DNA of 32,449 nucleotides from Candidatus Omnitrophota bacterium (GCA_035496795.1 DATJEJ010000022.1:1-32449); one strand, 5' to 3'. Shown: positions 1,189-16,659, counted from the stretch's first letter. Program-made: numbers and translations. The notes: generated by a model not told the origin, from the sequence alone.

Positions 1189-1617
1189 GTGCCGGGGCGA
1201 ATCCTGGTCGTCGAGGACGACCCGATGAACGCCAAGCTGTTCCAGCTGATCCTGGCGCGCAAGGCGGGGTTGACGGTCGAGGTGACCGAAGACCCGGCGC
1301 TGGTGCTGGAGCGCGCCCGCTCCGGCGACATCGACGTGATCATCATGGACGTCTCGCTCTCGAACAGCGAGTGGGACGGAACGCCGGTCGACGGACTGGA
1401 GATCTCGCGGCGGCTCAAGCGGGATCCCGTGGCCGGCCGGATCCCGATCCTCCTCGCGACCGCCCATGCCATGAAGGGCTCACGCGAGAACTTCCTGCGC
1501 GCCTCGGGCGCGGACGACTACATCTCCAAGCCGATCGTGAGCGCCGATGAGCTGGTCGCGCGCATCGAAGCCCTGATCGAGAAGAGGAACCATGCCTTTC
1601 CGCCTCCTCCTCGTTGA
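1189..1617 (+). CDS. Single-domain response regulator (receiver only)
   Basis: GTG at 1189 preceded by AGGAGGAGGG (1175-1184). Receiver motifs ILVVEDD, phospho-acceptor Asp in IIMDVS, conserved Lys in ISKP. No output domain. Confidence 0.85.
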   Translation: MPGRILVVEDDPMNAKLFQLILARKAGLTVEVTEDPALVLERARSGDIDVIIMDVSLSNSEWDGTPVDGLEISRRLKRDPVAGRIPILLATAHAMKGSRENFLRASGADDYISKPIVSADELVARIEALIEKRNHAFPPPPR

Positions 1618-2392
1618 CGACGAAGCGCACAACCGGAAGCTCCTCCGGATGGTGCTCCGCAAGGGCGAGTACGAATTCGTCGAGGCGGAGGACGGGGGCA
1701 AGGCGCTCGACATCCTGGCGAAGGAGACGATCGATCTCGTCCTGCTCGACCTGATGATGCCGAACCCCAACGGCTTCGACGTGCTCCACGCGATGCGGGC
1801 CAACGACCGGCACCGCGACATCCCGATCATCGTCGCGAGCGCCTCGACCGCGCCCGACGACGTGGAGCGCAGCCTGAGCATGGGGGCGGTGGACTACTTC
1901 ATGAAGCCGCTCACCGAGTGGGACATCCGCTTCCAGCTCCCGATCAAGGTGCGGAACGCGATCGCGCTCCACCGGGCCAGCGACGAGCGGCTCAAGGCGG
2001 AGCGGATGAAGGCGGTCTCGGCGATGGCGGTGGCGCTGAACCACGAGATCAACAACCCCTTACAGGTGATTCAGGGGAACGCGCAGCTCCTGTACGTGCA
2101 CCCGGGGATCCCGCCGGAGGCCCGGGAGAAGGTACAGCGGATCCGCCAGGCCACGGAGACGATCGCGGGGCTCACCCACCGCGTGGCGGCGCTGCGCGAC
2201 ATCGTGACGGTGGACTATCCGGCGGGAAACCGGACCACGGTTCCGATGGTGAGCTTCAAGGCCTCGACGACGACCCGCGAGACGGGAGCCAACGGAGCGG
2301 AGAAGGACGGAAGCGCGGCGGACGGCGGAGCGGACGGAGGCGGCGCCTCCGAATCGAACGACGCGCCCCCTCAGATCCCTAGGGCGGGGTAG
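1592..2392 (+). CDS. Response-regulator receiver fused to a HisKA/DHp-like H-box domain, without an ATP-binding (CA) domain. Gly/Asp/Ala-rich tail.
   Basis: ATG 1592 preceded by AGAGGA (1583-1588). Overlaps the upstream gene by 26 nt. REC motifs LLLVDDE, LLDLMMP, FMKP. H-box NHEINNPLQVIQGNAQLL (His codon 2042-2044). No N/G1/G2 boxes before the stop. Confidence 0.8.
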   Translation: MPFRLLLVDDEAHNRKLLRMVLRKGEYEFVEAEDGGKALDILAKETIDLVLLDLMMPNPNGFDVLHAMRANDRHRDIPIIVASASTAPDDVERSLSMGAVDYFMKPLTEWDIRFQLPIKVRNAIALHRASDERLKAERMKAVSAMAVALNHEINNPLQVIQGNAQLLYVHPGIPPEAREKVQRIRQATETIAGLTHRVAALRDIVTVDYPAGNRTTVPMVSFKASTTTRETGANGAEKDGSAADGGADGGGASESNDAPPQIPRAG

Positions 2393-3012
2393 AGCCAGTT
2401 CAGGATCAGGAAGTTGAGGCGGCCGAGCAGGAGCGCGATCCGGCCCATCACGGTGAATCCGAACGCCGCGCCGAACGAGATCATCAGGAACCAGATCCCC
2501 AGCCGCGCGATCCGCGACGTCACCGCGTTCTGCTCCTTCGAGAAGAAGAAGTAGGTCAGCGTGCTGTAGACCCCCACGATGAAGACGAACGACACGAGCA
2601 GCGTGTTCGCGTTCAACGGCCAGAGCGGCTGGATCGTCCGGGCCAGCTGCGGCAGCACCTCGCCGTGGATGCGCCGCGTGAACTCGACGCCGATGTAGTA
2701 GGCCACGTAGATCGCGAGCGCGTAGCGCGACACCCACCCGATCCGCGGCACGTAGCGCATGTAGAGCAGGAGCCCGATCCCCCCCGCCACGAGCAGATCC
2801 CAGTTCGCCGCGAAATCGGCCTTCAGGGGGTCGTACAGATTCGGCACCAGGGTCTGGTTCAGCACGATGCCGATGTAGTAGCCGAGCGAGACCCCCGCGA
2901 AGAGGCTCTCCGCGAAACGGAAGAAGGGATTGTCCTTGTAGAGGAACGAGAACGCGAAGAGCGTGAGGAGCGCCGAGATCCAGATCCCGATTCCGGGGAA
3001 GGTCGCGCTCAC
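2371..3012 (-). CDS. Polytopic integral membrane protein, unknown family (last gene of the four-gene membrane module)
   Basis: 213-aa ORF. GTG 3012 preceded by AAGGAG. About six hydrophobic helices (GIWISALLTLFAFSFL, GVSLGYYIGIVL, LLVAGGIGLLLY, ALAIYVAYYIGV, LLVSFVFIVGVY, LGIWFLMISFGAAFGF). No catalytic motif recognised. Confidence 0.7.
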   Translation of the reverse strand: MSATFPGIGIWISALLTLFAFSFLYKDNPFFRFAESLFAGVSLGYYIGIVLNQTLVPNLYDPLKADFAANWDLLVAGGIGLLLYMRYVPRIGWVSRYALAIYVAYYIGVEFTRRIHGEVLPQLARTIQPLWPLNANTLLVSFVFIVGVYSTLTYFFFSKEQNAVTSRIARLGIWFLMISFGAAFGFTVMGRIALLLGRLNFLILNWLYPALGI

Positions 3013-3046
3013 GCCCGAGTCTCCTTCGATCCGCCGACCGTTCGGC

Positions 3047-3925
3047 TCATAGGGCCTTGCGCTCCTTCCCGCGCGTGACCAGGAACGCCACGTTCCCCAG
3101 GAAGATGAACATCAAGATCACGGTGTGGAGCACGGTCTGCCCGTCCATCCCCTTCGTGGCCGTGAAGTACTTGGTCTCGTGGTAGTAGCGGTTCAGCGAC
3201 GGGTACTTCGCCATGAGGAGCTTCTCGTACTCCGCCGCCCCCTTCATGCCGCCGAGCATGCCCTCGAGCTGCCCCGCGTTCAGGTAGGCGTAGTACTTGG
3301 GCGCGCTCACGGCGGTCGGCCCGATGATGATCGGCGTGCCGAACTGGGCGTGGACCTGCGTGATCCAGTATTCCCCGATGACGCCCGTGGCCACCGTGAA
3401 GACCAGCGCGACGTGATGAATGTCGTGAATCCCCTTCATGATCGGGAACTCCGAGATCTTGCGCCCGTTCACGTCGGTCGGGAACGCGTCAGCGATGTTG
3501 TCGCCCAGGCGCCGCATCACCGCGGCCGCGCCGTCCTTGTAGCCGAGATTGATGTAGTCGACCCCGTACCGGAGTCCCGGCGTCTCGGCCACGATGCGCG
3601 CGACCGAGTTGTTCGCGAGCCCCAGCCCGCCGAGCGGATAGAAGGCGCACACGATGACGCGCAGCTTTCTGAGGAAGCACTGGCGCAGGAACGCCTCCGC
3701 CATGGGGTCGTTCTCGGGCGCCGACGAGGGGCCGTAGTCGTAGGAGATCCAGACCACGTCGCCGGGCTTCAGCCGCTCGATGAACTCGAACGCCTTGCGG
3801 GTGGAGGCGGTGGTGGTGACCGGCAGCCCGATCGGCACGACGATCGGGGTGATGAGGCTCACCAGCACGAAGAGATAGATCCACCGGCGGTCGAGGGCCA
3901 GCATCCAGCGGAAGAAGCGCTGCAT
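3047..3925 (-). CDS. Membrane protein with TM - ~230-aa soluble domain - TM architecture, unknown family
   Basis: 292-aa ORF. ATG 3925 (alternative ATG 3904). N-terminal helix IYLFVLVSLITPIVVPIGL and C-terminal helix VLHTVILMFIFLGNVAFLV flank a non-hydrophobic domain. 14 nt downstream of the preceding gene. Confidence 0.7.
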   Translation of the reverse strand: MQRFFRWMLALDRRWIYLFVLVSLITPIVVPIGLPVTTTASTRKAFEFIERLKPGDVVWISYDYGPSSAPENDPMAEAFLRQCFLRKLRVIVCAFYPLGGLGLANNSVARIVAETPGLRYGVDYINLGYKDGAAAVMRRLGDNIADAFPTDVNGRKISEFPIMKGIHDIHHVALVFTVATGVIGEYWITQVHAQFGTPIIIGPTAVSAPKYYAYLNAGQLEGMLGGMKGAAEYEKLLMAKYPSLNRYYHETKYFTATKGMDGQTVLHTVILMFIFLGNVAFLVTRGKERKAL

Positions 3926-3939
3926 CTAGCGGACCCCGC

Positions 3940-4743
3940 TCACGATTCGCTGCTCCCCAGACCGAGATAGCCGCGCTCGATCCCGAGGATGACGCGGACC
4001 GCCATCGAGGCGGCGCCGAGCGCGGCGCCGATGATGATCCCCGACTGCGCGGCGCCGTTGGGCGTGTCCATGATCCATTCCGTGAGCCGCCCGAGGGCCT
4101 GGCTGGCCGAGGCGGCGGCGGGCTGGAGCGGCGGGAACGGAACCGCGAGGAACTCGAGCAGCGGCACGCGCCCCGCCATCACGAGCCCCGCCGCGAACAG
4201 GAGAATGGTCGCCTCCGTGTTCCGCGCGCGGAACGCGCGGAACGCGGCCGAGGCCATGAAGAAGGCCAGCAGCGAGAAGATCGTCGACTGGAGCGGCTGG
4301 AAGAACCGGTCCTCCATCCATTTGAACGGCGTGGACGAGCCGTCCGGGGCGAAGCCGATCCCCTGGCCCGAGACCGCCCCCCAGATGGAGAAGGAGCCCA
4401 TGACGAAGAGCCCGGTCAGGAGCACGGCCGAGAAGAACCACCCCGCCTCGCGGCGCGCCACCTTCCGGCTGCTGTTCTGGATCACGTTCACGATGCCGAG
4501 GAGGAGCGCGAAGCCGGCCACGATGATGAGCCACTGATCCAGGCGGGGGCTCATCCCCGTCTCGCCCGAGAGGAAGTTCTTGGGTACGTAGAGCGACAGG
4601 ATCGGGACGATCCCGGCGATGAACGCGACGATGAGAGGAATGCGGCTCCGCATCGCCGGGCTCCCCAGCCCCAGCGCGATGCCGATCGCGGGAAGCACGA
4701 AGAAGCAGAGAACCAGCGCGACGCGTCCGAACTCGAGGTTCAC
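3940..4743 (-). CDS. Polytopic integral membrane protein, unknown family
   Basis: 267-aa ORF. GTG 4743 preceded by GGAGGAGA. Multiple hydrophobic helices (VALVLCFFVLPAIGIALGL, LIVAFIAGIVPILSLYV, LIIVAGFALLLGIV, FFSAVLLTGLFVMGSF, IFSLLAFFMASAAF, ILLFAAGLVMAG, GIIIGAALGAASMAV). Confidence 0.7.
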   Translation of the reverse strand: MNLEFGRVALVLCFFVLPAIGIALGLGSPAMRSRIPLIVAFIAGIVPILSLYVPKNFLSGETGMSPRLDQWLIIVAGFALLLGIVNVIQNSSRKVARREAGWFFSAVLLTGLFVMGSFSIWGAVSGQGIGFAPDGSSTPFKWMEDRFFQPLQSTIFSLLAFFMASAAFRAFRARNTEATILLFAAGLVMAGRVPLLEFLAVPFPPLQPAAASASQALGRLTEWIMDTPNGAAQSGIIIGAALGAASMAVRVILGIERGYLGLGSSES

Positions 4744-4774
4744 GCTGCGGTCTCCTCCGGGCGCGCGGCCGTTC

Positions 4775-5995
4775 TCATTGGGTCTGGAGAAGCTTCGCGA
4801 CCCACATGCTGCCGAACGTGGCGAAAGCGATTCCCGCCAGGCCGACCACGATGCAGAGCGCCTTGTAGATGTCCTGCCCCCGGATCGAGCCCAGGAGCAC
4901 CGGTTCGCGCGAGAGATAGGCGCTGGCGGCGTACAGCTCCTCGCCGATCAGCGTGTAGTCGCAGGTCGCGACGAAGAAGGGGAGCTGGGTGGGATCGGCC
5001 TGTCCCGCGATCTGGATCGCGCCGACCGACTGCCCCGTCTCGGCCAGGATCAGCGACTCCGCGAAGAAGTACCCGACCAGGAAGATCGTGGCCGGCCGCT
5101 CGCGCACCATGCGCGCCGAGACCGCGGCGGTGAAGGCGAACTGGTCGTACGTCACGTAGTTCACCATCTCCTCGCGATAGAGGTCGGGACGCCCCTCGGC
5201 GAGATAGGCGCCGCGCACCGTCTCGCGCGCGGAAGCGAACGTGAGCGGATCCTTGTTCGCGACGTCGAGGTCGGTGCCGTAGCGCGCGGTGGCGCGCGCG
5301 ACGTGGCCCAGGATCGACATCGAGGCCACCGTCTGGATGTCGTCCATGCTCTGGATGCCCGGGATGTAGAGCACCTTCTTCCCCGTCTCGGTCGCGCGGC
5401 CGATCGCCTCGTCCACGGCGTTCAGTCCGGCGATGCGCCGGATGAAGATCGGCTTGCCGGAGTGGGCCATCTGGATCGAGCCGAGGAGAGCGACGAGGAA
5501 GATGAGCGTGGCGATGAGGGAGTTGGTGCGGTCCTTCCGGAACCAGTTGTCGTGCGCCGAGGCCGGCTCGCTCACGACGGCGGTCCCCGCCGCGGCGGTC
5601 GGGGCGGCGGCGGCCGCGCGGGTCGTATCGGCCGGCGCGGCCGGCGCGCGGGCGCGAAGCTCGTACCGATACGTATGCTTCTCCGCCGCGCTCGCGTCCG
5701 TGTACGTCTGCGTCCCGAGCGGCACCTCGGCGAGCGCCTTCCACTCGAACGCCGGCGCCTCCGCGCGCCGGATCTCGATCAACGATCCCGCGGGAAGCGC
5801 CGCGCTGTCGGGATCGGTCCAGGTGAGAAGGATCGAGCCGCCGGAATCGCCGGGTTTGTCCTGGGCGACGAAGTTCGTGGGAGCGGGGAGTGCCTGGGTC
5901 GGGACGGGGGGCGACGGCGGCGCGGCACCCTGGGCCGATACCGCCGAGGGCGTGAACAGGACGGCCAGGAGGATCCAACCTACGGCCCATCGCAC
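4775..5995 (-). CDS. Secreted/anchored protein: signal peptide + FN3-like domain + Ala/Pro linker + TM + ~200-aa domain + C-terminal TM. Unknown family.
   Basis: 406-aa ORF with GTG start at 5995. Signal peptide MRWAVGWILLAVLFTPSAVSAQG. FN3-like stretch PTNFVAQDKPGDSGGSILLTWTD...YTD...YRYELRA. Helices LIATLIFLVALLGSI and ALCIVVGLAGIAFATFG. Confidence 0.7.
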   Translation of the reverse strand: MRWAVGWILLAVLFTPSAVSAQGAAPPSPPVPTQALPAPTNFVAQDKPGDSGGSILLTWTDPDSAALPAGSLIEIRRAEAPAFEWKALAEVPLGTQTYTDASAAEKHTYRYELRARAPAAPADTTRAAAAAPTAAAGTAVVSEPASAHDNWFRKDRTNSLIATLIFLVALLGSIQMAHSGKPIFIRRIAGLNAVDEAIGRATETGKKVLYIPGIQSMDDIQTVASMSILGHVARATARYGTDLDVANKDPLTFASARETVRGAYLAEGRPDLYREEMVNYVTYDQFAFTAAVSARMVRERPATIFLVGYFFAESLILAETGQSVGAIQIAGQADPTQLPFFVATCDYTLIGEELYAASAYLSREPVLLGSIRGQDIYKALCIVVGLAGIAFATFGSMWVAKLLQTQ

Positions 5996-6027: not shown

Positions 6028-7086
6028 TCAACGTACTTTTCGCCCCCGGATCCGCATGATCGGCCACACGTAGACGGAGAGGACCGGCCAGCGGGTGCAG
6101 AAGAACCGTAGAACGTCCTTCACCCACTGCCGCGGGTGCGTCTCGATCTTCCGGGAGAAGAAGGCGGGAAGAAGCTCCGGTTCCAGCCCGGCCTCCCTGA
6201 ACTTCCCCTTCATCCAGAAGGGATTCAGCTCGCGCTCGGGGTACTGGCCGTCGCGCGGGTCGCGATAGCGAAAATCCGGGCGGCGCCGGACGGCGCCCGT
6301 CTCGAGCAGCTCGCGCGTCCCCTCGATCACGTCGGCGCCCACCAGGCCCCGCGTCGCGCGGGTCGCCTCGAAGAGCTGGTTGCGCGCGAGCGAGGGGAAG
6401 TGTTCGCCGATCAGGGCGCGGCGCGCCGCGAAGTAGGGGCCGTTCGGCTCCGCTTCCATGTCGCGCCATCCGCGCCGGCGGCGTCCCCGCGCCGGCAGGT
6501 AGAGGGAGTTGTTCTCGTCGCTCAGGAAGAAGATGCCCCCCGGCCGAAGCAGCCGGTTGGCTTCACGCAGAAATCCCTCGAGGTCGCGGACGTGGGAGAT
6601 GACGCAGTTGGCCATGACCCCGTCGAACGACGCCGAAGGAAGCTCCATCGCGATCCCGTCCCCGTACCGCGATTCGAAGTGCTCGGGCGAGAGCGGCGGA
6701 TCCACCGCCTGCGCCAGGTAGGTCCCCACGGCGACCATGTCGCGGTCGATCTCGGTGGCGAGCACGCGCCGGGCACCGTAGATCGCGACGAGGAGCGCCT
6801 CGATGCCGAATCCCGCCCCCAGGTCGAGCACGTCCTTTCCCTCGGCTTCCAGGTAGTCGAACATCGCGCGCCCCTTCTGGAGGACGTGCTCGATGCGCGC
6901 CGGATTCCGGAGGATGTTCAGGTGCTTGTAGTAGACGAGGAAGTACTCGGGGAGCTTCTCGCGCAGCGCGGCGTCGCTCTGCATGAGGATCGCGCGGAGC
7001 GAGGCGAGACGGCGGGCGACGGTTCCGCTCGCGGGCCCGTGCGCCGCCGGCGAGGCGGGCCCGCGCGCGGTCGCTTCGGGGGTCAC
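6028..7086 (-). CDS. Class I SAM-dependent methyltransferase with a ~150-aa C-terminal extension
   Basis: Motif I VLDLGAGFGIEAL, then DGVMANCVISHV and LLRPGGIFFLSD. Start taken as GTG 7086, which forms a GTGA overlap with the upstream stop at 7083-7085. Alternative ATG at 6984. The 456-aa track ORF extending to 7398 overlaps the activator gene and was trimmed. Confidence 0.75.
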   Translation of the reverse strand: MTPEATARGPASPAAHGPASGTVARRLASLRAILMQSDAALREKLPEYFLVYYKHLNILRNPARIEHVLQKGRAMFDYLEAEGKDVLDLGAGFGIEALLVAIYGARRVLATEIDRDMVAVGTYLAQAVDPPLSPEHFESRYGDGIAMELPSASFDGVMANCVISHVRDLEGFLREANRLLRPGGIFFLSDENNSLYLPARGRRRRGWRDMEAEPNGPYFAARRALIGEHFPSLARNQLFEATRATRGLVGADVIEGTRELLETGAVRRRPDFRYRDPRDGQYPERELNPFWMKGKFREAGLEPELLPAFFSRKIETHPRQWVKDVLRFFCTRWPVLSVYVWPIMRIRGRKVR

Positions 7087-8831
7087 TGCCCGTTGGATTC
7101 GCTGAGGATCCGCGCGCGGCGGATCCCGTGGAAATTCATCCGATTGTGGAGGTGCTGACGGCTCACGCCCAGGGCGCGCGCCGCGCGCGAGACGTTCGAC
7201 TCGCACTGGCGGAGCGCTTCGCGGATCGTCTCGGCCTCGACGGCGTCCAGCGTCTCCCGCAGCGTGTGCTGGCCGTCCCAGCGCCGGGACACCGTCGCGC
7301 CCAACCCGAACAGGGAGGGCTCGAGCGGGGCTCCTTCGTCGGCCAGCGCGACCGCGCGGGCCATCGCGTTCTCCAGCTCCCGGACGTTTCCGGGCCACGG
7401 GTAGCGCAGGAGCAGCTCCCGCGACTCCACGGTGAGACCGCGGGTCGTCTTCGATTGCTGCTTCGCGAAGAGGTCCAGGAAGTGCTGCGCGAGGAGAAGG
7501 ATGTCCTCGCCGCGCTCACGGAGCGGCGGCGATTCGATCGGCACCACGTTCAACCGGTAGAAGAGATCCTGGCGGAAGCGGCCGCCGTCCACCTCGGCGC
7601 GAAGATCGCGGTTCGTGGCCGTGATCAGGCGGATGTCCACGCGGCGGCTGACCGTGTCGCCCACGCGGCGGATCTGCGAATCTTGAAGCACGCGGAGGAG
7701 CTTGACCTGCAGCGAGGCGGGCATCTCGCCCACCTCGTCGAGGAACAGCGTCCCCTGGTCGGCCGCCTCGAACAATCCGACGCGGTCCTCGTTCGCACCC
7801 GTGAAGGCGCCCTTCTTGTAGCCGAACAGCTCGCTCTCGAGCAGGTTCTCCGGGAGCGCGCCGCAATTGACGGCGATGAAGTTCCGGTCCTTGCGCGGCC
7901 CGTGGAGATGGATCGCGCGCGCGACCAATTCCTTCCCCGTCCCCGTCTCGCCGGTGACCAGCACCGAAACCTGGGTCGGGATCACCTTCTCCATCAGGTC
8001 CACGACGCGCTGCATGCGCGGGCTCTTCCCGATCAGGAGTCCGTAGCGGACGTCCTCCTTGAGCGCGCGGCGGAGATTCAGGTTCTCGATCTCGAGGCGG
8101 CTCTTGGAGTCCTTCAGCGCCTCGTGCAGGCGCGCGTTCTCGAGCGCCACGGCGACGAGCGCGGCGAAGCCCTCGAGGAGGGTGATGTCGTCGGGAGTGA
8201 ACTCGTGGGCGATGGAGTGCGAGTCGATGTAGAGCACGCCGAGGACGCGTCCCGCATTGGAGATCGGAAACGCGACGACGGTGCGAAGCGAGAGCTCGCG
8301 CACGCTCTTTCGATCCTGGAAGAGCGAGGAGCCCATCGCGTCGGGAACCCAGACGGTCTCGCGGCGGTGCGCGGCCTCTTCGGCGATCCCCCAGGAGATC
8401 TGGAAGTCGTCGGAGGGCACGGTGGTCTCGTCCTTGCTGCGCGCGACCTCGAAGTGGAGCTTGCCGTCTTCCCTGCAGAGCATCAGGAAGCCGCGATCGG
8501 CGCCGGCGACCTGTACCACCGCGTCCACGATGCGCACGAGAAGCTCGTTCAGATCGAGCGTGCTCGTGACCGCGCGGCTCGCGTGCAGCAGATGCTGCAG
8601 CCGGTCGAGATCGGAGGTGACCCGGGGACGCGAAGGCGATCGCGGCTGGGTCAGGAGCTCCCGCTCCCACTGCGACAGCCCGCGGCTCAGGGCTTCGAGG
8701 GGATCGTTTTCGGGCAGATTCGCGGGATGGCTTCCGAAGGGTTTCGGAAGTGGGTCTCCCAAAGGCTTACCCAGGGGGTTCGACGAGGCGGCCGACTCGT
8801 TCTCGTGGAATGGATCGGTATGTTGGGACAT
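7083..8831 (-). CDS. Sigma54-dependent transcriptional activator (bEBP): Pro/Gly-rich N-terminus + GAF + AAA+ + Fis-type HTH. No receiver domain.
   Basis: Walker [15 protein letters not shown] loop, ESELFGY, Walker [10 protein letters not shown]-terminal [22 protein letters not shown]-like region [22 protein letters not shown]...VLYID. ATG 8831 preceded by AAGGA. Confidence 0.92.
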
Positions 8832-8892: not shown

Positions 8893-8921
8893 ACAATACA
8901 ACTGTAAAACTCGATTGTCAA
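8893..8921 (-). promoter_or_regulatory. Sigma70-type promoter candidate for the activator operon: TTGACA-N17-TATTGT
   Basis: On the minus strand, TTGACA is at 8921-8916 and TATTGT at 8898-8893, with an exact 17-nt spacer. It sits in the only AT-rich patch of this region. The -35 overlaps the stop codon of the upstream transferase gene (8918-8920). It lies about 60 nt upstream of ATG 8831. Confidence 0.5.
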
Positions 8922-9943
8922 GTGTCGGAAGTGGGGGTGAGACGCTTTCGTCTCAGCGAAGCCCCGAAAATGGCGTATCCAAGCGCCAAAATTAGGACTG
9001 CGCCCAGTGCCAGCGGAGCACTTTTCAGGCTCCAGACCCCGATTCCGAGGGCGGAAGTGACAGTCACGAGGAGGGAAATTAAGGCCACAGTCCCCCACCG
9101 TCCACAAATCCGACCAAGTCGGTGGGTCGTATGGTCGGTGCTTCCCTCGGCGATGGGACGGCCGGTGGCCAGGCGGTCGAAGACCACGAAGAGGACGTCG
9201 AAGAACGGATACGAAAGGATACAGAGAACCCCCGCCGCATGGGGCACCGTGAGGGCGTCGTCCAGGGCCTGCAGCGCCAGCGTGGCCAGGACGAAGCCGA
9301 GCAGATGGCTCCCCGCATCGCCCAGGAAGATGCGCGCGGGAGGGGCGTTGTAGACGAAGAATCCGGCGCAGGCTCCCGCCAGCGCCCATCCGAGCGCGCG
9401 GTCCATTCCCGCCCCGAAGAGGAGCGAAAGGGCGAGGAATCCGGCCGCCGAGATCGGCACCACCGCGGCCACGATGCCGTCCATGGCGTCGAGGAAGTTC
9501 ACCGCGTTCAACAGGCCGACGACGCCGACGAGAGCGATCGCCGCGAGGAGCGGCTGCTGCGCGAGAAATCCGCCGCCGCGCGCGCCCCAGAGGATCAGCG
9601 TCACCGCGGCCGCGATCTGCCCCGCCAGCTTCCCCATCGGCCGCATCGGCCGGCGATCATCCACCAACCCGAGCGCGAGCGAGAGCGCGGCCCCGAAGAG
9701 CACGCCGGCGCGCGGCCATTCGATGTCGGCATGGAAGAGGACGTTTCCGAAGAGCATCCCCAGCGCGACCGCGAGGGCCACGGCCACGCCGCCGAGGAGC
9801 GGCGTCGGCTCGGGATGGTGTTTCCGCGGATCGGGATGGTCGAGATATCCGAGGGCGGGCGCGAGGCGGCGGAAGAGCGGCGTCACGGCGAGCGCCACGG
9901 CGAAGGCGAGCGGGGCGACGAGCGGTGTCAGGTGCGACGTCAA
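8918..9943 (-). CDS. Polyprenyl-phosphate HexNAc-1-phosphate transferase, WecA/MraY (glycosyltransferase 4) family
   Basis: 341-aa polytopic ORF with TTG start at 9943. Motifs DHPDPRKHHPEPTPLLGG, LVDDRRPM, NAVNFLDAMDG, FLGDAGSHLLGF. Confidence 0.85.
   Translation of the reverse strand: MTSHLTPLVAPLAFAVALAVTPLFRRLAPALGYLDHPDPRKHHPEPTPLLGGVAVALAVALGMLFGNVLFHADIEWPRAGVLFGAALSLALGLVDDRRPMRPMGKLAGQIAAAVTLILWGARGGGFLAQQPLLAAIALVGVVGLLNAVNFLDAMDGIVAAVVPISAAGFLALSLLFGAGMDRALGWALAGACAGFFVYNAPPARIFLGDAGSHLLGFVLATLALQALDDALTVPHAAGVLCILSYPFFDVLFVVFDRLATGRPIAEGSTDHTTHRLGRICGRWGTVALISLLVTVTSALGIGVWSLKSAPLALGAVLILALGYAIFGASLRRKRLTPTSDT
8938..8955. repeat. 7-bp perfect inverted repeat with 4-nt loop (TGAGACG CTTT CGTCTCA)
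   Basis: Read directly. It lies inside the last ~12 codons of the WecA-family gene, just upstream (on the minus strand) of the activator promoter. Confidence 0.4.
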
Positions 9944-9991
9944 ACCGCGCGCATCCTCAGGCGGAGGTCGTCGTCACGCGGGGCGCATCGC

Positions 9992-11221
9992 TCAGCGGGG
10001 GAGCGCCCGGATCGGTGTCGACGCCGTGCCCGAGCGGGTGCCGGCGTCGCGCGCCGATTCCATCGCGAGCACCGAGGCGTCCCAGGTGAACCGGGCGCGC
10101 GCCCAGGCGCGGCCGAGACTGCCCAGCGCGGCCGCCGCCTCGGGATCGCGAAGGAGCGTGATGGCGTGGGTCGCGATCGTGCCGGCGTCTTCGCCGACGC
10201 GCAGGATCCCCTCGGGCACGGGCTCGAGGCCGGCGCGAACGGCCGGCGTGGTCACGACCGGCGTGCCGCTCGCGAGCGCCTGGACCACCTTGTTCTGAAC
10301 CCCCGCGGCGAAGCGATGCGGCGCGACGAACAGCGTGGAGCGGGCGAGCTCGCCCTCGGGATCGTCCACGAACCCGAGCACCCGCACGCCCGGGACCCGC
10401 TCGGCCCACCCGCGCAGCGCCTCGGAGCCTTTCCCCGCGATGGCGAGCGTCGCCTCGGGCACTTCGGCACGCACCCGCGGGAAGACCTCGTGCACCAGGA
10501 ACCGCACGGCGTCGCGATTGTGGAACACGTCGTGAAATCCGAGGAAGAGAAGGCGGGCGCGCTCACGCACGGCGGGGGCGCGCAGCCGTTCGGGGTGCAT
10601 TCCGTTGGGAACGACCCGCACGCGAGCCTCGGGGGCGATCCGCGCCAGGTGCCGGGCCTCGGCCTGGCTGATCACCCAGCACTCGTGGAACCGGGGCGCC
10701 ACGGCGGCCTCGTAGTCGCGGATGCGCGGCCCCTCCAGCTGATAGAGCCACCGGTCGGCGCCGCTCCGGAACGGAAGCGAGCGCTCGATCCCCGCGGAAA
10801 TGACGTCGGTGAGGTCGAGGACCCAGCGGGCGCGCCCGCGGTCCAGGTGCGGCAGGGCGTAGGGCGCCATGCGGAAGAGATGCGTCACGACGACGTGGGG
10901 CCGCACGCGGCGCATCGTCTCGTCCACGCGCTCCCGCATGCGCGCGGAGCGGTAGTAGGCCGCCTGGAGCGGAAAGCGTCCGGGGATCGCCTGCGCCGCG
11001 CGCAGCCACGAGAGCGGACGCGGGAGCGGCACGGTGTCCACGCTCCGGAGCGTGCGCTGGAGCGGAGCGAGATCGTCCTCGCTCTGGCGCCGCGTGTCGA
11101 ACGAGAGGAGGTGGACCGCATGCCCGGCTTCCGCCGCCGCGCGCATCATGTGATAGACGCGAAACCGGTCGCCTCCGACCGGCGGGTAGGGCATGCGCGA
11201 CGTGAGGACGAGGACGCGCAT
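9992..11221 (-). CDS. Glycosyltransferase, GT-B fold (CAZy GT4-like)
   Basis: Start trimmed to ATG 11221 (MRVLVLTSRMPYPPVGGDRFRVYH, a typical GT4 N-terminus). The C-terminal half has the GT1/GT4 pattern (LLFLGF...VRFL, FVAPHRFAAGVQNKVVQALASGTPVVTT). Confidence 0.8.
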   Translation of the reverse strand: MRVLVLTSRMPYPPVGGDRFRVYHMMRAAAEAGHAVHLLSFDTRRQSEDDLAPLQRTLRSVDTVPLPRPLSWLRAAQAIPGRFPLQAAYYRSARMRERVDETMRRVRPHVVVTHLFRMAPYALPHLDRGRARWVLDLTDVISAGIERSLPFRSGADRWLYQLEGPRIRDYEAAVAPRFHECWVISQAEARHLARIAPEARVRVVPNGMHPERLRAPAVRERARLLFLGFHDVFHNRDAVRFLVHEVFPRVRAEVPEATLAIAGKGSEALRGWAERVPGVRVLGFVDDPEGELARSTLFVAPHRFAAGVQNKVVQALASGTPVVTTPAVRAGLEPVPEGILRVGEDAGTIATHAITLLRDPEAAAALGSLGRAWARARFTWDASVLAMESARDAGTRSGTASTPIRALPR

Positions 11222-11230
11222 AGAGGCCGC

Positions 11231-11277
11231 AGTATACCACGCGTGAAATTGACACCGGCAGCGCCGTCCCCGAGACT
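11231..11277. promoter_or_regulatory. Divergent promoter candidates in the 64-nt gap between the GT4 gene and wzx
   Basis: Minus strand: TATACT (11236-11231) lies 9 nt before ATG 11221. Plus strand: TTGACA (11249-11254)-N17-GAGACT (11272-11277) lies 8 nt before ATG 11286. Neither start codon has a Shine-Dalgarno sequence. Confidence 0.3.
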
Positions 11278-11285
11278 CCGCCCCC

Positions 11286-12668
11286 ATGTCCGGTACCGAG
11301 CGGCTCGCCACGTGGAGCAGGCGCCTCCAGCGCTTCGCGTGGGGCGCGGGACCTGCGTTGATCTACGCACCGCTCGGTATTCTCCGCAACAAGTGGCTCG
11401 CCTCGACCCTGTCCGCGCCCGGGCTGGGCGTGCTGGCCCAGGTCCTGTCTGCGATGAACTGGCTGGGACAGGCCGCCGGGCTCGGGCTGGGCCTGCCGGT
11501 CACGCGCCTGGTCGGCGCGGCGCGGGCGGCAGGCGACAGCGCGCGCGAGCGCGCGGTCATGCGCACCGCGCTCCGGCTCGCGCTGGGAACCTCGGGCCTC
11601 GTCGCGGTGCTGGTCCTGTTCGGCGCTCCCTTCCTCGCGCGCGCCCTGCTGGGATCCGCGACCTACGCGCCGCTCTTTCGCATCGCCTCGATCGGGATCG
11701 TCGGGCTCGCCGCCGCGGGAACGCTCCTCGCGCTGGCCGCGGGCCGAGGCGACATCCGACCGCCGATCACGATCGCCGCTCTCGGGGCCCTCCCCGCGAC
11801 GGCGCTGACCTTTCTCCTCGTGCCCCGATGGGGGCTGGCGGGGGCGATGATCGCGGCCGCCGTGCTCTACCCCGCCGGATGCCTGGCCGCGCTCGCCGTC
11901 CACCGCCGCGGATACCGGACCGCGTTCGTGGGCGGCACCGCCGGGAATCCGGGCGAGCCCGCGTGGGCGATGGCCCGGGTCGGCGCCGCGGGCCTGGCGC
12001 TCGGGCTGCTCGATCAGGGCGTGCTCCTCGTGCTCCGGGCGCACTACGTGCGGACCTACGGGGCCGCCGCGAACGGATTCCTCCAGGCCGCCCTGGCGCT
12101 GAGCCAGCTGACCGGGTCGCTCTTCTACACCTACCTCGCGAGCTACGCCTTCGGCACGCTGAGCGCGGCGGTCGCGGCGGCCGGACCCGGCCGCGGGGCG
12201 GCCGCGGCGGGCGCCTACACGCGGCGCCAGGGTCCCGCGATCTTCGCCCTCGCGGCGCTGCTCTTCGGGATCGGCATGATGATCTCGACGCCCCTGCTCC
12301 GGATCCTCTTCTCGCACCGGTTCGATCCCGCGCGTCCGCTCATGGCCTGGGCGCTGCTCGGCGAGTACGGACGCGTCGGCATGCAGGTTCTCCTCCTCGG
12401 CGCGCTGCCGGTCGGCGGGCTGCGCCTCTACGCGCCGATCGCGATCGCCTTCCCGGTCGCGCTCGCCGTGAGCTACGCCGCGTTCACCGCGACGGGCTCC
12501 GGCACGTTGAGCCTGCCCCGCGCCTACGCCGCGGCCGGCGTGATCGCCGCGATCGCCGCCGCCCTGATCATGAGCCGCCGCGGCGTGACCCTCGGGGCCC
12601 GGGAAGTCGGAGTCCTCGCCGGCGGGGCGCTCCTCCTGGCCGCGATCGCGAGCCAGGTGCTCCGGTAG
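11286..12668 (+). CDS. wzx: Wzx-like oligosaccharide flippase / polysaccharide biosynthesis protein (MOP superfamily)
   Basis: 460-aa protein with about 12-14 hydrophobic helices. N-terminus LRNKWLASTLSAPGLGVLAQVLSAMNWLGQAAGLGL resembles the PST-family N-terminus and parallels the second flippase at 30622-32130. Confidence 0.7.
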   Translation: MSGTERLATWSRRLQRFAWGAGPALIYAPLGILRNKWLASTLSAPGLGVLAQVLSAMNWLGQAAGLGLGLPVTRLVGAARAAGDSARERAVMRTALRLALGTSGLVAVLVLFGAPFLARALLGSATYAPLFRIASIGIVGLAAAGTLLALAAGRGDIRPPITIAALGALPATALTFLLVPRWGLAGAMIAAAVLYPAGCLAALAVHRRGYRTAFVGGTAGNPGEPAWAMARVGAAGLALGLLDQGVLLVLRAHYVRTYGAAANGFLQAALALSQLTGSLFYTYLASYAFGTLSAAVAAAGPGRGAAAAGAYTRRQGPAIFALAALLFGIGMMISTPLLRILFSHRFDPARPLMAWALLGEYGRVGMQVLLLGALPVGGLRLYAPIAIAFPVALAVSYAAFTATGSGTLSLPRAYAAAGVIAAIAAALIMSRRGVTLGAREVGVLAGGALLLAAIASQVLR

Positions 12669-12672
12669 CGGG

Positions 12673-12678
12673 TATACT
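12673..12678 (+). promoter_or_regulatory. Isolated TATACT -10-like box between the wzx stop and the next start codon
   Basis: TATACT at 12673-12678, 4 nt after the wzx TAG (12666-12668) and 8 nt before TTG 12687. No convincing -35 was seen. Confidence 0.2.
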
Positions 12679-12686
12679 CGGCCGGC

Positions 12687-13901
12687 TTGGACGCTCCCGG
12701 CTCGAGATCACGGCTTTTGACGCCGCTTCGGCCCGCGCTCGAGCGCGCGGCCGCTCTCGCCCGTCGCGCGCGAGCGCGCCTCTTCGGCTCGGGTCTCGCG
12801 CGCGACGTGAACGCCGCGTGGCGGCCCGCGGACGGCCACCGGCCGGCGCGCCGAGCGCTTCTCCTGCACGTGGTCGAGCTCTTCCGCACGAAGCCCGGGC
12901 GCCATGCGCATCAGAACGTGGGCCAGGTGCACGAGCTGGCGCGCGCGCTCGCCGAGCGCGGCTACGCCCTGGACGTGGCGGACTGGTTCGAGCGAAGGCC
13001 GGTGCTGCGCGGCGCCTACGATCTGGTGATCGACCTCCATCCGCGGGAGCCGGCCCTGTACGACGCGCACGTTGCCCCAGACGCGAAACGGCTCTCCTAC
13101 ATCGGCGGCTGCAACCCCTCGTGGAGCAATGCCGCCGAGCGCCAGCGCCTCCTGGACCTGCGGGCGCGACGCGGCGTCTCGCTCAAGCCGCGGCGGCAGG
13201 TGCCTCCCTTTCCGCCCGGCCGGTTCGAGTCGTTCGACGCCATGCTCACGTTCGCGGGGACCGTGGCGATCCGGACCTTCGACGAGTTCCGCCTTCCGCC
13301 GGTGCACCGGCTGGTGAACAACGGCTACGAAGACCTCGTCCCGACGCCCCCCGACCGCCGTGATCCGCGCTGCTTCCTCTTCCTCGCGAGCCTGGGGCAG
13401 GTCCACAAGGGCCTCGACCTGCTCCTCGAGGTGTTCGCCGCCCGGCCCGAGCTCACCCTGATCGTGCTCTCCCGCTTCCGCCAGGAGCCCGACTTCGTCG
13501 AGGCCTACCGGCGCGAGCTGTTCGAGACACCCAACATCCGCGCGATCGGCTTCCTGGACGTGGACGCGCCCGCGTTCCGGGATGCGCAGGAGCGCGCCGG
13601 CTGGCTCATCCTCCCCTCGTGCGCCGAGGCGCAATGCGGTGCCATCACGGTGGCGCTCTCGCTCGGGATCCCCTGCGTCGGAAGCGCGGCGTGCGACATC
13701 GACGATCCCGAAGTGATCCGGCTGCCCGGCACCGATCTCCCCACGCTGGGTGCCGTGGTGGACGACCTGGCCCGTCGTAGCACCTCCGAAGTCCGCGCGC
13801 GCTCCGAGGCCTCGCTCGCGCTGGCGCGGCGCGTCTACACGCGCGCCGACTACGCTCGCTCGATCCGCGCGGCGCTGGACGCCGTGCTCGAGGGCGCATG
13901 A
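12687..13901 (+). CDS. Putative GT-B fold glycosyltransferase (degenerate GT1/GT4-like C-terminal domain)
   Basis: C-terminal pattern FLFLASLGQVHKGLDLLLEVF...LIVLS...ILPSCAEAQCGAITVALSLGIPCVGS. Start uncertain: TTG 12687 is the furthest upstream, and an in-frame GTG at 12807 is the alternative. Confidence 0.55.
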   Translation: MDAPGSRSRLLTPLRPALERAAALARRARARLFGSGLARDVNAAWRPADGHRPARRALLLHVVELFRTKPGRHAHQNVGQVHELARALAERGYALDVADWFERRPVLRGAYDLVIDLHPREPALYDAHVAPDAKRLSYIGGCNPSWSNAAERQRLLDLRARRGVSLKPRRQVPPFPPGRFESFDAMLTFAGTVAIRTFDEFRLPPVHRLVNNGYEDLVPTPPDRRDPRCFLFLASLGQVHKGLDLLLEVFAARPELTLIVLSRFRQEPDFVEAYRRELFETPNIRAIGFLDVDAPAFRDAQERAGWLILPSCAEAQCGAITVALSLGIPCVGSAACDIDDPEVIRLPGTDLPTLGAVVDDLARRSTSEVRARSEASLALARRVYTRADYARSIRAALDAVLEGA

Positions 13902-14704
13902 GCGCCGCAACCATCGCGTGCCGGCTCTGCGGCGGGCCGGCCGCGTCCCTGTTCTCGAAGACCGTTCTCGGACGGCACGACGTTGGATATTTCCAGTGTC
14001 CGCGCTGCGGGCTCACGCAGACCGAGGAGCCGACCTGGCTGAAAAAGGCGTACGCCTCGCCCATCGCGGCCGCCGACACCGGCGTGCTCCAGCGGAACCT
14101 GGCGGCACGCCGGATCGTCGCGACCTTCCTCCACCTGGCGGGCGTCCGCGGCGATCCCTGCCTGGACTACGCCGGCGGATACGGCCTCTTCACGCGCCTC
14201 ATGCGCGACGCGGGGTTTTCGTTCACCTGGTGCGACCCCTACGCCGCGAACCTCTTCGCGCGCGGGTTCGAATGGAGCCCCGCGATCGGGACGCCGCGGG
14301 TCGTGACCGCGTTCGAGGTGCTGGAGCACTGGGCGCGCCCGCTCGAGGAATTTCGCCGGATCGCGGCACTCGGCCCCGAGTGGATCGTGACGAGCACGGA
14401 GCTCCATCCCGGCGTGACCCCCGATCCGGCGTGGCCCTACCTGGTCCCCGAGACGGGCCAGCACGTCGCGTTCTACCGGCCCGACACGCTGCGGCTCCTG
14501 GGGCGCGAGGCCGGTTACCCGCACGCGCGGATCGGGCCCGCGTACCAGGTCTTTGGGAGGCGGCCCATTCCGGCGGCGGCGTGGTGGCTCGCGCTGCGCC
14601 TGGGGGGAGCGCTGGAGCCGGCGGTGCGCCGGCTCCGCCCGGCACTCACGCTGGCCGACAGCGAGCGAGTCCGCGCCGCGGCGCGCGGCGAAGAACCGCG
14701 CTGA
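13898..14704 (+). CDS. Class I SAM-dependent methyltransferase with N-terminal Cys4 zinc-ribbon
   Basis: CRLCGG-x20-CPRCG, motif I CLDYAGGYGLF, and AFEVLEHW. The ATG at 13898 overlaps the upstream TGA (ATGA). Confidence 0.75.
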   Translation: MSAATIACRLCGGPAASLFSKTVLGRHDVGYFQCPRCGLTQTEEPTWLKKAYASPIAAADTGVLQRNLAARRIVATFLHLAGVRGDPCLDYAGGYGLFTRLMRDAGFSFTWCDPYAANLFARGFEWSPAIGTPRVVTAFEVLEHWARPLEEFRRIAALGPEWIVTSTELHPGVTPDPAWPYLVPETGQHVAFYRPDTLRLLGREAGYPHARIGPAYQVFGRRPIPAAAWWLALRLGGALEPAVRRLRPALTLADSERVRAAARGEEPR

Positions 14705-15801
14705 TGCGGCCCGTCGTCTTCACGGGCGACGCCTTCCGGATCCAGAGCCGGGGCGGCATCACCCGCTACTTCAAGGAGACGATCGCGCGCCTGTCCCGTC
14801 CCGTGGAGGTGCTGGCCGGGTGGCACCAGTCGCCGGCGCTCCGGACGCTGGCCGTACCAGTCCGCGAGGCGGCGTTCGTACCGCACCGAAGGGGGCTCAC
14901 GCGACCGCGAGCGCTCCTGAACGCGGCCTGGGACCGCGGGCCTCTTCGCGACGCCGCGCGCCGGGGCGCGATCCTTCACCCCACGTACTATCGCGACCCC
15001 CGGTCGCTGCCGCGGACCAGCCCCGTCGTCGCGACCGTCTGGGATATGACCCACGAGCGGTTCGCGGGACTCTTCCGCCGGCGCTTCTGGCAGGCCGCGG
15101 ACGCCGCGCGCTGGAAGCGCGCGCTCTGCGCGCGCGCGGACCGGATCGTCTGCATCTCCGACGCGACGCGGCGCGATCTGCTCGCTTCCGTCGACGTGCC
15201 CGAGGCGAAGCTGCACGTGATCCATGCCGGCGCGCCCGACTGGACGGGGATCGCCGCACGGCCGATGCCCGCCGTTCCCCTGCCCTTCTTCCTCTGGGTC
15301 GGGGACCGTCACGGCTACAAGAACTTCCTCCCGGCCATGGAGGCCTGGGCCGCGAGCGCCGCGGGACGGGCGACCGCGCTCCTCTGCGTCGGGGGAGGTC
15401 CGCTGAGCGCGGAGGAGCGCGATGCCGCCGCGCGATGCGGCGCCCTGGAGCGCGTGCTCCATCGCGCGGCCGACGACGCGGAGCTGCGATGGGCGTACGA
15501 GCGCGCGGCCGGGCTCCTCTATCTGTCGCGCTCCGAGGGATTCGGCCTGCCGGTGCTGGAGGCGATGTCGCTGGGATGCCCGATCGTGGGATCGCCCGCG
15601 GCGGCGCTCCCCGAGGTCGTCGGCACGCTGGCGATCCTCGCGGACCCCGAGGACCGGGAGAGCATGGCCGCGGGAATCGAGCGCTGCCTGGAACAGGGAC
15701 GAACGCCCGAGGGCGCGATCGCGCTCCGCGCCCGCGCGGCCCTCTTCACGTGGGACCGCTGCGCGCGCGAGCACGAGCGGGTCTACGAAGCGCTGGACTG
15801 A
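14704..15801 (+). CDS. Glycosyltransferase family 1 / CAZy GT4
   Basis: ATG 14704 shares one base with the upstream TGA (TGATG). MRPVVFTGDAF...GGITRY, FFLWVGDRHGYKNF, LSRSEGFGLPVLEAMSLGCPIVGS (EX7E motif). The 683-aa track ORF was trimmed. Confidence 0.85.
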   Translation: MRPVVFTGDAFRIQSRGGITRYFKETIARLSRPVEVLAGWHQSPALRTLAVPVREAAFVPHRRGLTRPRALLNAAWDRGPLRDAARRGAILHPTYYRDPRSLPRTSPVVATVWDMTHERFAGLFRRRFWQAADAARWKRALCARADRIVCISDATRRDLLASVDVPEAKLHVIHAGAPDWTGIAARPMPAVPLPFFLWVGDRHGYKNFLPAMEAWAASAAGRATALLCVGGGPLSAEERDAAARCGALERVLHRAADDAELRWAYERAAGLLYLSRSEGFGLPVLEAMSLGCPIVGSPAAALPEVVGTLAILADPEDRESMAAGIERCLEQGRTPEGAIALRARAALFTWDRCAREHERVYEALD

Positions 15802-16652
15802 GTCCCGGGCGGCGTGCCGCGAACGGCGCGGCGAACGAGCCGCGCGGCCCGAAGCATCCCCACCGCGCCGAGCAGGCGCCGCAGGGCGAGGCGTGGCATC
15901 TCCACGGCACCCGCGAAGAGTGCGAATTCCGCCGCGGCTTGGGCCCCGAAGCGCTCGCGGACGATGCGGCCGCGCTCGCGGAGGAGGCGCACGTACCGCC
16001 GCTCGCTCACGCCGCCCGCTCCCATCGAGGCGGCGACCTCCGGCACGAAGCGCTTCGTGATCTCCGGCCGCTGGAACACGCGGATCACCCAGTCGTAGTC
16101 GGCCGCGATCGCGAAGCGGAGGTCGAAGCCGCCGGCGGCATCGAACACGGAGCGGCGGCAGAAGATCATCTGGTGCCCGCACCGGTTCTGGAGGCGAAGC
16201 CGCGCCAGCGAGACCGGTCCGCCGACGATCTCCCGCGTGCGGAGCGCGTCGTCGCGCCATTCGAGCAGGCAGTGGACGAAATCGGCGCCCCCGCCGCCGC
16301 CGACCACGCGCGCAACCGCGTCGGGCGCAACAAAGCGGTCGTCGGCATTCAGGAAGAAGAGATAGCTGTCGCGGCGCTCGACCCTCGCGATCGCCCGGTT
16401 CATGGCGTCGTAGATTCCGGCGTCGGGGGCGCTCTCGAAGCGGAGACTCCCTTCGCGCGCGCGGAGCAGGTCGAGGGTGCCGTCGGTCGACGCCCCGTCG
16501 AGGACCAGGTAGTCGAGCGGCCGGTGGGTCTGCGCGAGCACGCTCTCGATCGTGGCCGGGAGCGTCGCGCGCGCGTTCCGCACCACGGTGATCACCGTGA
16601 CGTGGGGCGGCCCGCCCGGCGGGAGCGTCACGATCGGGGAGGGAGCGGCCAC
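15783..16652 (-). CDS. Glycosyltransferase family 2
   Basis: GTG 16652. VTVITVVRNARATLPATIESVLAQT, LVLDGASTDGT, FFLNADD. Confidence 0.85.
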   Translation of the reverse strand: MAAPSPIVTLPPGGPPHVTVITVVRNARATLPATIESVLAQTHRPLDYLVLDGASTDGTLDLLRAREGSLRFESAPDAGIYDAMNRAIARVERRDSYLFFLNADDRFVAPDAVARVVGGGGGADFVHCLLEWRDDALRTREIVGGPVSLARLRLQNRCGHQMIFCRRSVFDAAGGFDLRFAIAADYDWVIRVFQRPEITKRFVPEVAASMGAGGVSERRYVRLLRERGRIVRERFGAQAAAEFALFAGAVEMPRLALRRLLGAVGMLRAARLVRRAVRGTPPGTQSSAS

Positions 16653-16659
16653 GGAGCCG

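Follow-up and report, generated by a model that had tools for sequence, protein, structure and literature searches.

A conserved four-gene module of a DUF6754 protein and three further membrane proteins, putatively one inner-membrane complex, in diderm bacterial phyla

Among the described systems that resemble the locus analysed here is GldA-GldF-GldG, in which an ABC-2 permease is accompanied by an auxiliary protein built from a transmembrane (TM) helix, a large periplasmic alpha/beta domain and a second TM helix; the Na+-NQR and Rnf complexes and the Tol-Pal and TonB-ExbBD systems offer other points of comparison. The locus is a module of four minus-strand open reading frames (ORFs), separated by gaps of 31, 14 and 34 nucleotides (nt), in a 32,449-nt stretch from Candidatus Omnitrophota bacterium. 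We call this whole stretch the window, and count all its coordinates from its first letter. An earlier note had pointed to the four products, (i) to (iv), as a membrane-protein module whose function could not be read from its sequence. Our analyses support a genuine, uncharacterised, envelope-embedded four-protein module: profile and structure searches gave no confident match to a characterised transporter or secretion family, and the gene order is conserved across genomes. We infer that the four genes encode subunits of one complex of the cytoplasmic membrane, which might be called the DUF6754 system and which appears to be ancient and widespread in diderm, mostly uncultivated phyla.

When the four window proteins were used in tblastn searches, the order i-ii-iii-iv on one strand was recovered at nearly every locus with enough sequence. 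There were 118 complete modules in 160 loci, gene (i) being followed by (ii) 148 times, (ii) by (iii) 134 times and (iii) by (iv) 121 times, with almost no other orders. Clustering of the ORFs from the first 80 loci found no other gene family in more than 17 of them. Given this fixed order and the absence of a more frequent companion, the sequences indicate that the module is a self-contained four-gene unit inherited together. At least 8000 homologues of protein (i) were found, and in an exhaustive domain search its DUF6754 domain fell into 2101 clusters at 50% identity. The loci from a scan of species-representative genomes belong to Eisenbacteria, Latescibacterota, Zixibacteria, Poribacteria, WOR-3, Fermentibacteria/Aegiribacteria, Ignavibacteria and Coatesbacteria, and also to Marinimicrobia, an anammox planctomycete, Acidobacteriota and others. 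The named genomes with a module span at least 10 phyla, and the distribution is restricted to diderm lineages. No cultured host was among the best matches listed for two DUF6754 searches, and the domain was not found on plasmids. Close homologues are annotated as Candidatus Eisenbacteria. That the coding is genuine, as the earlier note had held, is beyond doubt on such comparative grounds, because the homologues number in the thousands and the same four-gene order recurs in so many complete modules elsewhere. By the same token, we give a negligible probability to the idea that four unrelated membrane genes became adjacent by chance. It is effectively refuted by a synteny in which order, strand and adjacency are identical in all the complete modules, across those phyla, and in which tandem duplications copy the whole unit.

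Two or three complete modules stand in tandem at 24 of the loci (L014, L019, L025, L026, L055, L064, L077, L078, L081, L085, L087 and L112 among them). The copies differ in the length of their ectodomains, and in the DUF6754 domain those of one locus share 49-66% identity with each other, against 70-98% with their orthologues in other genomes. Because identity within the locus is the lower of the two, the duplications are old and the copies have been maintained. A "solo" DUF6754 gene was considered as a sign that the module is divisible, and discarded: in the complete Zixibacteria chromosome concerned (L034:7509-9896) the gene breaks off at a stretch of N, beyond which the record goes on with SppA-like peptidase sequence, and this is a scaffold gap or masked stretch and no true fusion.

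The earlier note had seen no recognisable family signature in any of the four products. This was wrong for protein (i), of which residues 148-402 match Pfam PF20539 (DUF6754) over model positions 2-256 of 257 (E=3e-111; 371.1 bits against a gathering score of 27 bits). All 60 close homologues scanned also match, so that it is a strong member of a family, albeit an uncharacterised one for which no function, structure or partners had been described. Our literature search on DUF6754 found no paper mentioning the family, and searches on PF13941, on GlmL with ASKHA, and on the phylum names with "membrane complex" found nothing relevant. For proteins (ii), (iii) and (iv) the statement holds. They have no Pfam or NCBIfam match, and Pfam found nothing in 61 diverse relatives of (iii) either. 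The PADLOC anti-phage defence models gave zero matches to the four proteins at E<=0.1, and none of the four had a significant match to any PDB chain, whether searched by sequence or by profile. For protein (ii) there was a sub-threshold match to TMD0_ABC (E=0.01, 16.4 bits against a cutoff of 27).

Throughout its family the DUF6754 domain is very highly conserved (50-60% identity across phyla) and, in the exhaustive domain search, always C-terminal, behind N-terminal regions of widely differing length. A signal-peptide-like N-terminus was found in 101 of 123 representative members and is retained even in the shortest ones. The ectodomain behind it measures from 16 to 550 amino acids (aa), with a median of 134. 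The long ones contain fibronectin type III (FN3) repeats, beta-propellers of the BamB/PQQ type or bacterial Ig domains, and many have no Pfam match. The FN3-like ectodomain proposed for the window protein has marginal support. Pfam fn3 did not match it or 59 close homologues, and the best true FN3 match of its profile against the PDB was weak (3mpc, E=0.022); clear fn3 repeats, with a match at E=1e-23, are found in longer relatives.

The architectures that had been claimed for the four proteins agree with hydropathy, sequence and AlphaFold2 models. Residues 140-406 of (i), modelled with a diverse alignment, gave a predicted local distance difference test score (pLDDT) of 93.8 and a predicted TM-score (pTM) of 0.86, with alternating beta/alpha units between two TM helices. 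In the model of (iii) (pLDDT 85, pTM 0.83) a Rossmann-like domain, again of alternating strands and helices, stands between an N-terminal TM helix and a long one at the C-terminus. In Foldseek searches of the PDB both retrieved only generic alpha/beta proteins with TM-scores of about 0.3, the best match being at E=2.5e-3 for (iii) and at E=6.5e-3 (MurQ) for (i). The secondary-structure elements follow in the same order in the two models. That (i) is a paralogue of (iii), or (ii) of (iv), was nevertheless rejected at the sequence level. In BLASTP and in hhalign runs with diverse alignments, some of them limited to the domains or to halves of the proteins, the probabilities were at most 4%, and for (ii) against (iv) less than 1.2% with whole proteins and with each pairing of halves. 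Nor did the half-protein comparisons find internal 3+3 repeats in (ii) or (iv).

Charges counted family-wide give the two alpha/beta domains opposite predicted locations. In (iii) the tails carry about 3.4 (N-terminal) and 3.9 (C-terminal) Lys plus Arg, with an invariant DRR before TM1 and an Arg-rich C-tail. Since these tails are positive and the flanks of the domain neutral, both termini are predicted to be inside and the domain periplasmic. In (i) there is a net charge of +3.4 on the domain side of the two TM helices which, together with the signal-peptide-like N-termini, puts the conserved domain in the predicted cytoplasmic position and the variable N-terminal part outside, in the periplasm. 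The two domains would thus face opposite sides of the membrane. The (ii) family shows a clean alternation of loop charge that corresponds to six TM helices with both termini inside; for (iv), which has 6-7 hydrophobic segments, the orientation is less clear from the charge counts. The window protein (ii) has seven hydrophobic segments against six in the family core. The additional one (residues 8-26) is N-terminal, is found in the Eisenbacteria clade formed by the window and its four closest relatives (L001-L004), and is absent from the core, to which matches start at about residues 27-31; it would act as a signal sequence or flip the N-terminus to the outside.

When the alignments were compared with the models, the invariant residues of the (i) and (iii) domains were found at the C-terminal ends of beta-strands and at the starts of the following helices. 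In doubly wound alpha/beta folds the C-terminal strand ends are the usual binding crevice, and on these models the invariant residues would line such a canonical ligand-binding crevice. They include E203, E313, E319, C345, D346, E352 and E353 in (i), and D63, E71, D123, D151 and E234 in (iii). Polar residues are conserved in TM2 of (iii) (Q263, H267 and N278), and other conserved polar residues lie near the membrane in (iv) (E35, R96 and R191) and in (ii) (R169 and E256).

In several respects the module recalls GldFG and the binding-protein-dependent ABC transporters. It has polytopic subunits of about six TM helices that could add up to a core of about 12, an alpha/beta domain at the cytoplasmic face and, as in GldFG, a distribution in the Fibrobacteres-Chlorobi-Bacteroidetes (FCB) group. 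Protein (iii), like GldG, has a predicted periplasmic alpha/beta domain tethered by TM helices at both ends. The likeness of the module to these transporters is one of architecture only. The module differs in having no ABC ATPase and in that a TM helix is fused to either end of the cytoplasmic domain in (i). No ABC nucleotide-binding domain (Walker A/B, ABC signature, Pfam ABC_tran) was found in the four proteins, and no ABC ATPase gene is consistently nearby. The permease families BPD_transp, ABC2_membrane and FtsX gave nothing above threshold in (ii) and (iv) with Pfam and NCBIfam, and profiles against PDB sequences gave zero matches. ABC_transp_aux/GldG (PF09822) had no Pfam match in (iii) or in 60 diverse members of its family.

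With Na+-NQR and Rnf the module shares a multi-subunit inner-membrane composition, two small subunits of about six TM helices and about 200 aa and, in (iii), a bitopic protein with a periplasmic alpha/beta domain as in NqrC/RnfG. However, (ii) and (iv) are not mutually homologous, whereas NqrD/E and RnfA/E are. Pfam found no Rnf-Nqr family member (PF02508) among the four proteins, and Pfam and NCBIfam found no FMN_bind, Fer4 or FAD/NAD-binding match; there is no FMN-attachment or Fe-S motif. Tol-Pal and TonB-ExbBD are likewise inner-membrane complexes with a linker-borne periplasmic arm, but they have other subunit architectures, and the module has no MotA_ExbB, TonB_C or TolA signature. There was no match to MotA/ExbB/TolQ (PF01618), and the residues conserved in TM2 of (iii) are Q, H and N, not Asp. 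Wzx, Wzy, Wzz/PCP, the glycosyltransferase families and the sugar transferases were also without a match in the four proteins. The earlier note's statement that ABC, MFS, RND, Sec, secretin, glycosyltransferase and peptidase signatures are missing therefore agrees with the Pfam and NCBIfam results. As far as such comparisons of sequence reach, the features tested as defining for ABC, GldFG, Rnf/NQR, stator-type and polysaccharide-assembly systems are all missing from the module. It may be a system of a new kind, although (ii) and (iv), compared by sequence, could yet turn out to be remote members of a known membrane fold. What was known before is DUF6754 as a catalogued domain family; no source searched describes the obligatory four-gene partnership, the predicted topology and structures, the paralogous arms or the possible ATPase link.

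This link comes from the one recurrent partner of the module, a set of four genes, D-C-B-A. Among the 57 module loci with enough upstream sequence, 15 have this set immediately before the module and on its strand, in at least seven phyla (for example L025:970-7141, L037:1164-5035 and several of L081-L160, such as L141:7397-11122). D (about 148 aa) has hydrophobic segments and is membrane-associated, and C has about 133 aa. B (about 616 aa, 65-90% identical across phyla) is an ASKHA-fold ATPase that matches Pfam MutL at E=1e-128 and the NCBIfam GlmL models. A has about 375 aa (50-70% identical across phyla) and an invariant N-terminus, M-A/G-H-A-Y-T-P-G-L. A, C and D are without characterised relatives. 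In the reverse test, 80 metagenome loci were retrieved with A as query, and in 23 of the 40 with at least 4.5 kb downstream the module followed directly, often in two or three copies and in at least seven phyla. The A/B loci without a module are set among housekeeping genes (tolQRAB, accA, era, release factor). In one lineage (L086:5128-8291 and L090:6447-9613) A/B is followed directly by tolQ-tolR-tolA-tolB in place of the DUF6754 module. No ATPase family other than the ASKHA-type B recurs beside the module in the 80 loci.

B resembles the GlmL/MutL/EutA-type ASKHA ATPases, reactivases of B12-dependent mutases, in its MutL and GlmL matches. It differs from them in scoring 232 bits against an equivalog cutoff of 475, in an extra C-terminal region of about 130 aa and in having no adjacent mutase genes. 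These differences, together with its conservation across phyla, indicate from sequence comparison that B is a distinct GlmL-family paralogue with another role. We considered A as a homologue of NqrA/RnfC and dropped the idea: its N-terminus matches the RnfC/NqrA barrel-sandwich domain weakly and below threshold (E=6e-4, 20.2 bits against 25.6), its profile found nothing in the PDB, and any Rnf link of the system is limited to this match in an accessory protein that the window does not encode. None of A to D is encoded in the 32 kb of the window, and the earlier note could therefore not have seen them. The genome probably has several paralogous modules, of which the window contains one, and any genes for A/B partners would lie at another place.

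As to what such a complex might do, we tentatively put forward, short of calling it probable, a transporter or an energy transducer acting across the inner membrane, with (i) to (iv) as its subunits. The unrelated polytopic proteins (ii) and (iv), with together about 12-13 membrane helices, would form the membrane core, and (iii) would contribute a tethered domain for binding or handing over in the periplasm. A cytoplasmic partner would couple to the complex at the cytoplasmic domain of (i); in many genomes this partner is plausibly the GlmL/MutL-type ATPase B with its companion A, which in the window organism would be encoded elsewhere. Through the variable arm of (i), paralogous modules would each attach to a partner of their own in the periplasm or outer envelope. 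A bolder version, which we consider unlikely, is that the module with the upstream ATPase and its partners forms a new class of ATP-coupled trans-membrane machine, unrelated to the ABC, P-type, Sec and stator-type ones. Here the cytoplasmic Rossmann domain of (i), clamped to the membrane, would be the docking site of the actin-fold ATPase, which would power transport or mechanical work by way of the heterotetrameric core, and the interchangeable periplasmic arms would set the envelope target of each paralogous module.

A number of points weigh against transport or energy transduction. The proposal derives from architecture alone, since no subunit resembles a known transporter, channel, motor or ATPase, and the structural part of it from models of (i) and (iii). 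The module has no consistent link with any substrate-related gene. Neither the window nor most module loci contain the ATPase genes, and A/B are also found beside housekeeping genes without any module, so that the coupling may be indirect or merely syntenic. The physical association of the four proteins is suggested by synteny, and their topology predicted from charge rules and signal peptides.

Other readings share part of this evidence. One is a membrane-bound enzyme complex for the synthesis or modification of a lipid or polymer of the envelope, for instance a glycan, a lipid-linked sugar or a modification of surface proteins, and corresponds to the surface-glycan handling machine of the earlier note. 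With catalytic Rossmann-like domains and polytopic subunits that hold a lipid-linked substrate, it would fit the invariant acidic and polar residues of both alpha/beta domains at what is the canonical active-site crevice. GT-B glycosyltransferases and sugar-nucleotide enzymes are frequent in the weak Foldseek lists (OtsA, UDP-GlcNAc 2-epimerase, PimA and BshA, besides MurQ at the top for (i)), and the module adjoins a polysaccharide locus in the window. However, dehydrogenases and TIM barrels figure in the same generic lists, with E-values of 2.5e-3 or worse and the low TM-scores already given. Pfam and NCBIfam found no glycosyltransferase, acyltransferase, polymerase or flippase, the polysaccharide context is limited to the four closest relatives, and genes for sugar nucleotides or lipid carriers do not recur around the module in the 160 loci. 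We regard this explanation as rather unlikely, and give much the same weight to a trans-envelope structural or force-transmitting machine like Tol-Pal, TonB or the gliding motors, an idea that overlaps with the transporter or transducer. In such a machine the arm of (i) would reach the peptidoglycan or the outer membrane, and the outer envelope would be maintained, moved or remodelled with energy that the core transduces from an ion gradient or from the ASKHA ATPase. It would fit the arm itself (variable in length, Ala/Pro-rich, with FN3, Ig or propeller domains behind a signal peptide), the confinement to diderm lineages, the polar residues inside TM helices, the ancient paralogues with different arms, and the two loci in which A/B directly adjoin tolQ-tolR-tolA-tolB. 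This tol adjacency is, however, confined to one lineage; there is no MotA/ExbB/TolQ, TonB, OmpA-like or peptidoglycan-binding signature, and the arm is not essential, given that some members have an ectodomain of 16 aa.

The third functional alternative, a transmembrane sensor or signalling complex in which the variable ectodomain of (i) senses a cue from the envelope or from outside and the conserved cytoplasmic domain is the output, we hold to be improbable. Variable outside and conserved inside is the typical layout of a receptor. The genes around the module in the window encode a PAS histidine kinase, two receiver proteins and a sigma54 activator, and the module may be co-transcribed with the activator (the gap to the intervening methyltransferase gene is 32 nt, and there is a sigma70-like site at 8921-8893). 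But outside L001-L004 the module lacks these regulatory neighbours, the two-component genes run towards it and not in its direction, and Pfam and NCBIfam found no HisKA, HATPase, GGDEF, HAMP, anti-sigma or STAS domain in the four proteins. Moreover, a sensor can usually do with less than a conserved periplasmic domain and three more obligatory membrane subunits, of which two are polytopic.

If the four proteins do form a functional complex, the DUF6754 system would be a major and very widespread inner-membrane machinery, often with two or three modules per genome, and absent from every model organism and from the structural database. It would probably matter for building, energising or using the envelope in Zixibacteria, Eisenbacteria, Latescibacterota, Poribacteria, WOR-3, Ignavibacteria, anammox bacteria and their relatives. 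Were the ATP-coupled version true, it would be a housekeeping envelope system of the FCB group and allied phyla with no counterpart in model bacteria. In either case, one DUF and three unannotated ORFs become a testable four-subunit unit, with a predicted topology, two domain models, candidate ligand-site residues and a candidate ATPase partner.

The features of the window module are collected in Table 1. ORF calling recovered the four packed same-strand ORFs with the coordinates, lengths and gaps that the earlier note had given, and both ribosome-binding sites it had named are present. The window has about 70% G+C, and its opposite strand consequently carries long spurious overlapping ORFs, from which the homology data pick out the true genes.

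Table 1. Features of the four-gene module in the 32,449-nt window (all on the minus strand; TM, transmembrane helix)
Feature	Position	Strand	Details
Gene (i), DUF6754 protein	4775-5995	-	406 aa, GTG start
Gene (ii), polytopic membrane protein	3940-4743	-	267 aa, GTG start
Gene (iii), bitopic protein	3047-3925	-	292 aa, ATG start
Gene (iv), polytopic membrane protein	2371-3012	-	213 aa, GTG start, 6-7 TM
Ribosome-binding site GGAGGAGA	4751-4758	-	7 nt before GTG 4743 of gene (ii)
Ribosome-binding site AAGGAG	3021-3026	-	8 nt before GTG 3012 of gene (iv)
(i) signal-peptide-like N-terminus, residues 1-21, AVSA|QG	5933-5995	-	hydropathy, sequence
(i) small beta-rich ectodomain, residues 36-118, about 85 aa, possibly FN3-like	5642-5890	-	marginal support
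(i) Ala/Pro-rich linker, residues 119-147	5555-5641	-	read from sequence
(i) TM1, residues 159-177	5465-5521	-	hydropathy 2.14; long helix in AlphaFold2 model
(i) conserved Rossmann-like alpha/beta domain, residues 178-364, about 185 aa, predicted cytoplasmic	4904-5464	-	AlphaFold2, charge
(i) TM2, residues 365-393	4817-4903	-	hydropathy 2.08; AlphaFold2 helix 226-254 (domain numbering)
(iii) TM1	3827-3883	-	
(iii) Rossmann-like domain, about 230 aa, predicted periplasmic	3140-3826	-	AlphaFold2, charge
(iii) TM2	3074-3139	-	

Around the module, the genes for the PAS histidine kinase, a receiver protein and a receiver-HisKA protein are convergent to it. The last of these (1592-2392, plus strand) encodes a receiver fused to HisKA, without HATPase_c and with a Gly/Ala/Asp-rich C-terminal tail, and its 3' end overlaps that of gene (iv) by 22 nt. 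Upstream, on the strand of the module, are the methyltransferase gene, which ends 32 nt before gene (i), the GAF-sigma54 activator, a GT4-family (WecA-like) transferase and further glycosyltransferases. The earlier note had taken this two-component and polysaccharide context as a clue to function, which did not stand: the two-component, activator, methyltransferase and GT4 neighbours are common only to L001-L004, and to none of the other ca. 75 module loci. Because of this narrow conservation, the neighbourhood is lineage-specific and a weak guide to function.

A sigma54 promoter upstream of the module was sought and discarded, with 15 matches against 20 expected by chance and none usefully placed; the sigma70-like site mentioned above is the single one, upstream of the activator gene. 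In the region 6028-8831 (minus strand) the activator ORF (7083-8831) and the longest form of the methyltransferase ORF (6028-7398) overlap in different frames, as they also do in L003 and L004, and in L001 the two are one fused protein of 893 aa (GAF, sigma54 AAA+, methyltransferase). This is either a frameshift or a gene fusion in one lineage, and hints at a functional link between the two. Further upstream, two ORFs (12708-13910 and 14515-16260, minus strand) have no Pfam match and may not be real frames. The polysaccharide locus in which they lie (8918-18072, minus strand) contains a GT4-family (WecA/MraY-like) transferase (8918-9943), a GT4/GT1 glycosyltransferase (9992-11311) and a WbaP-like bacterial sugar transferase (Bac_transf) with a CoA-binding-like domain (16660-18072), and so has two different candidate initiating phosphoglycosyl transferases.

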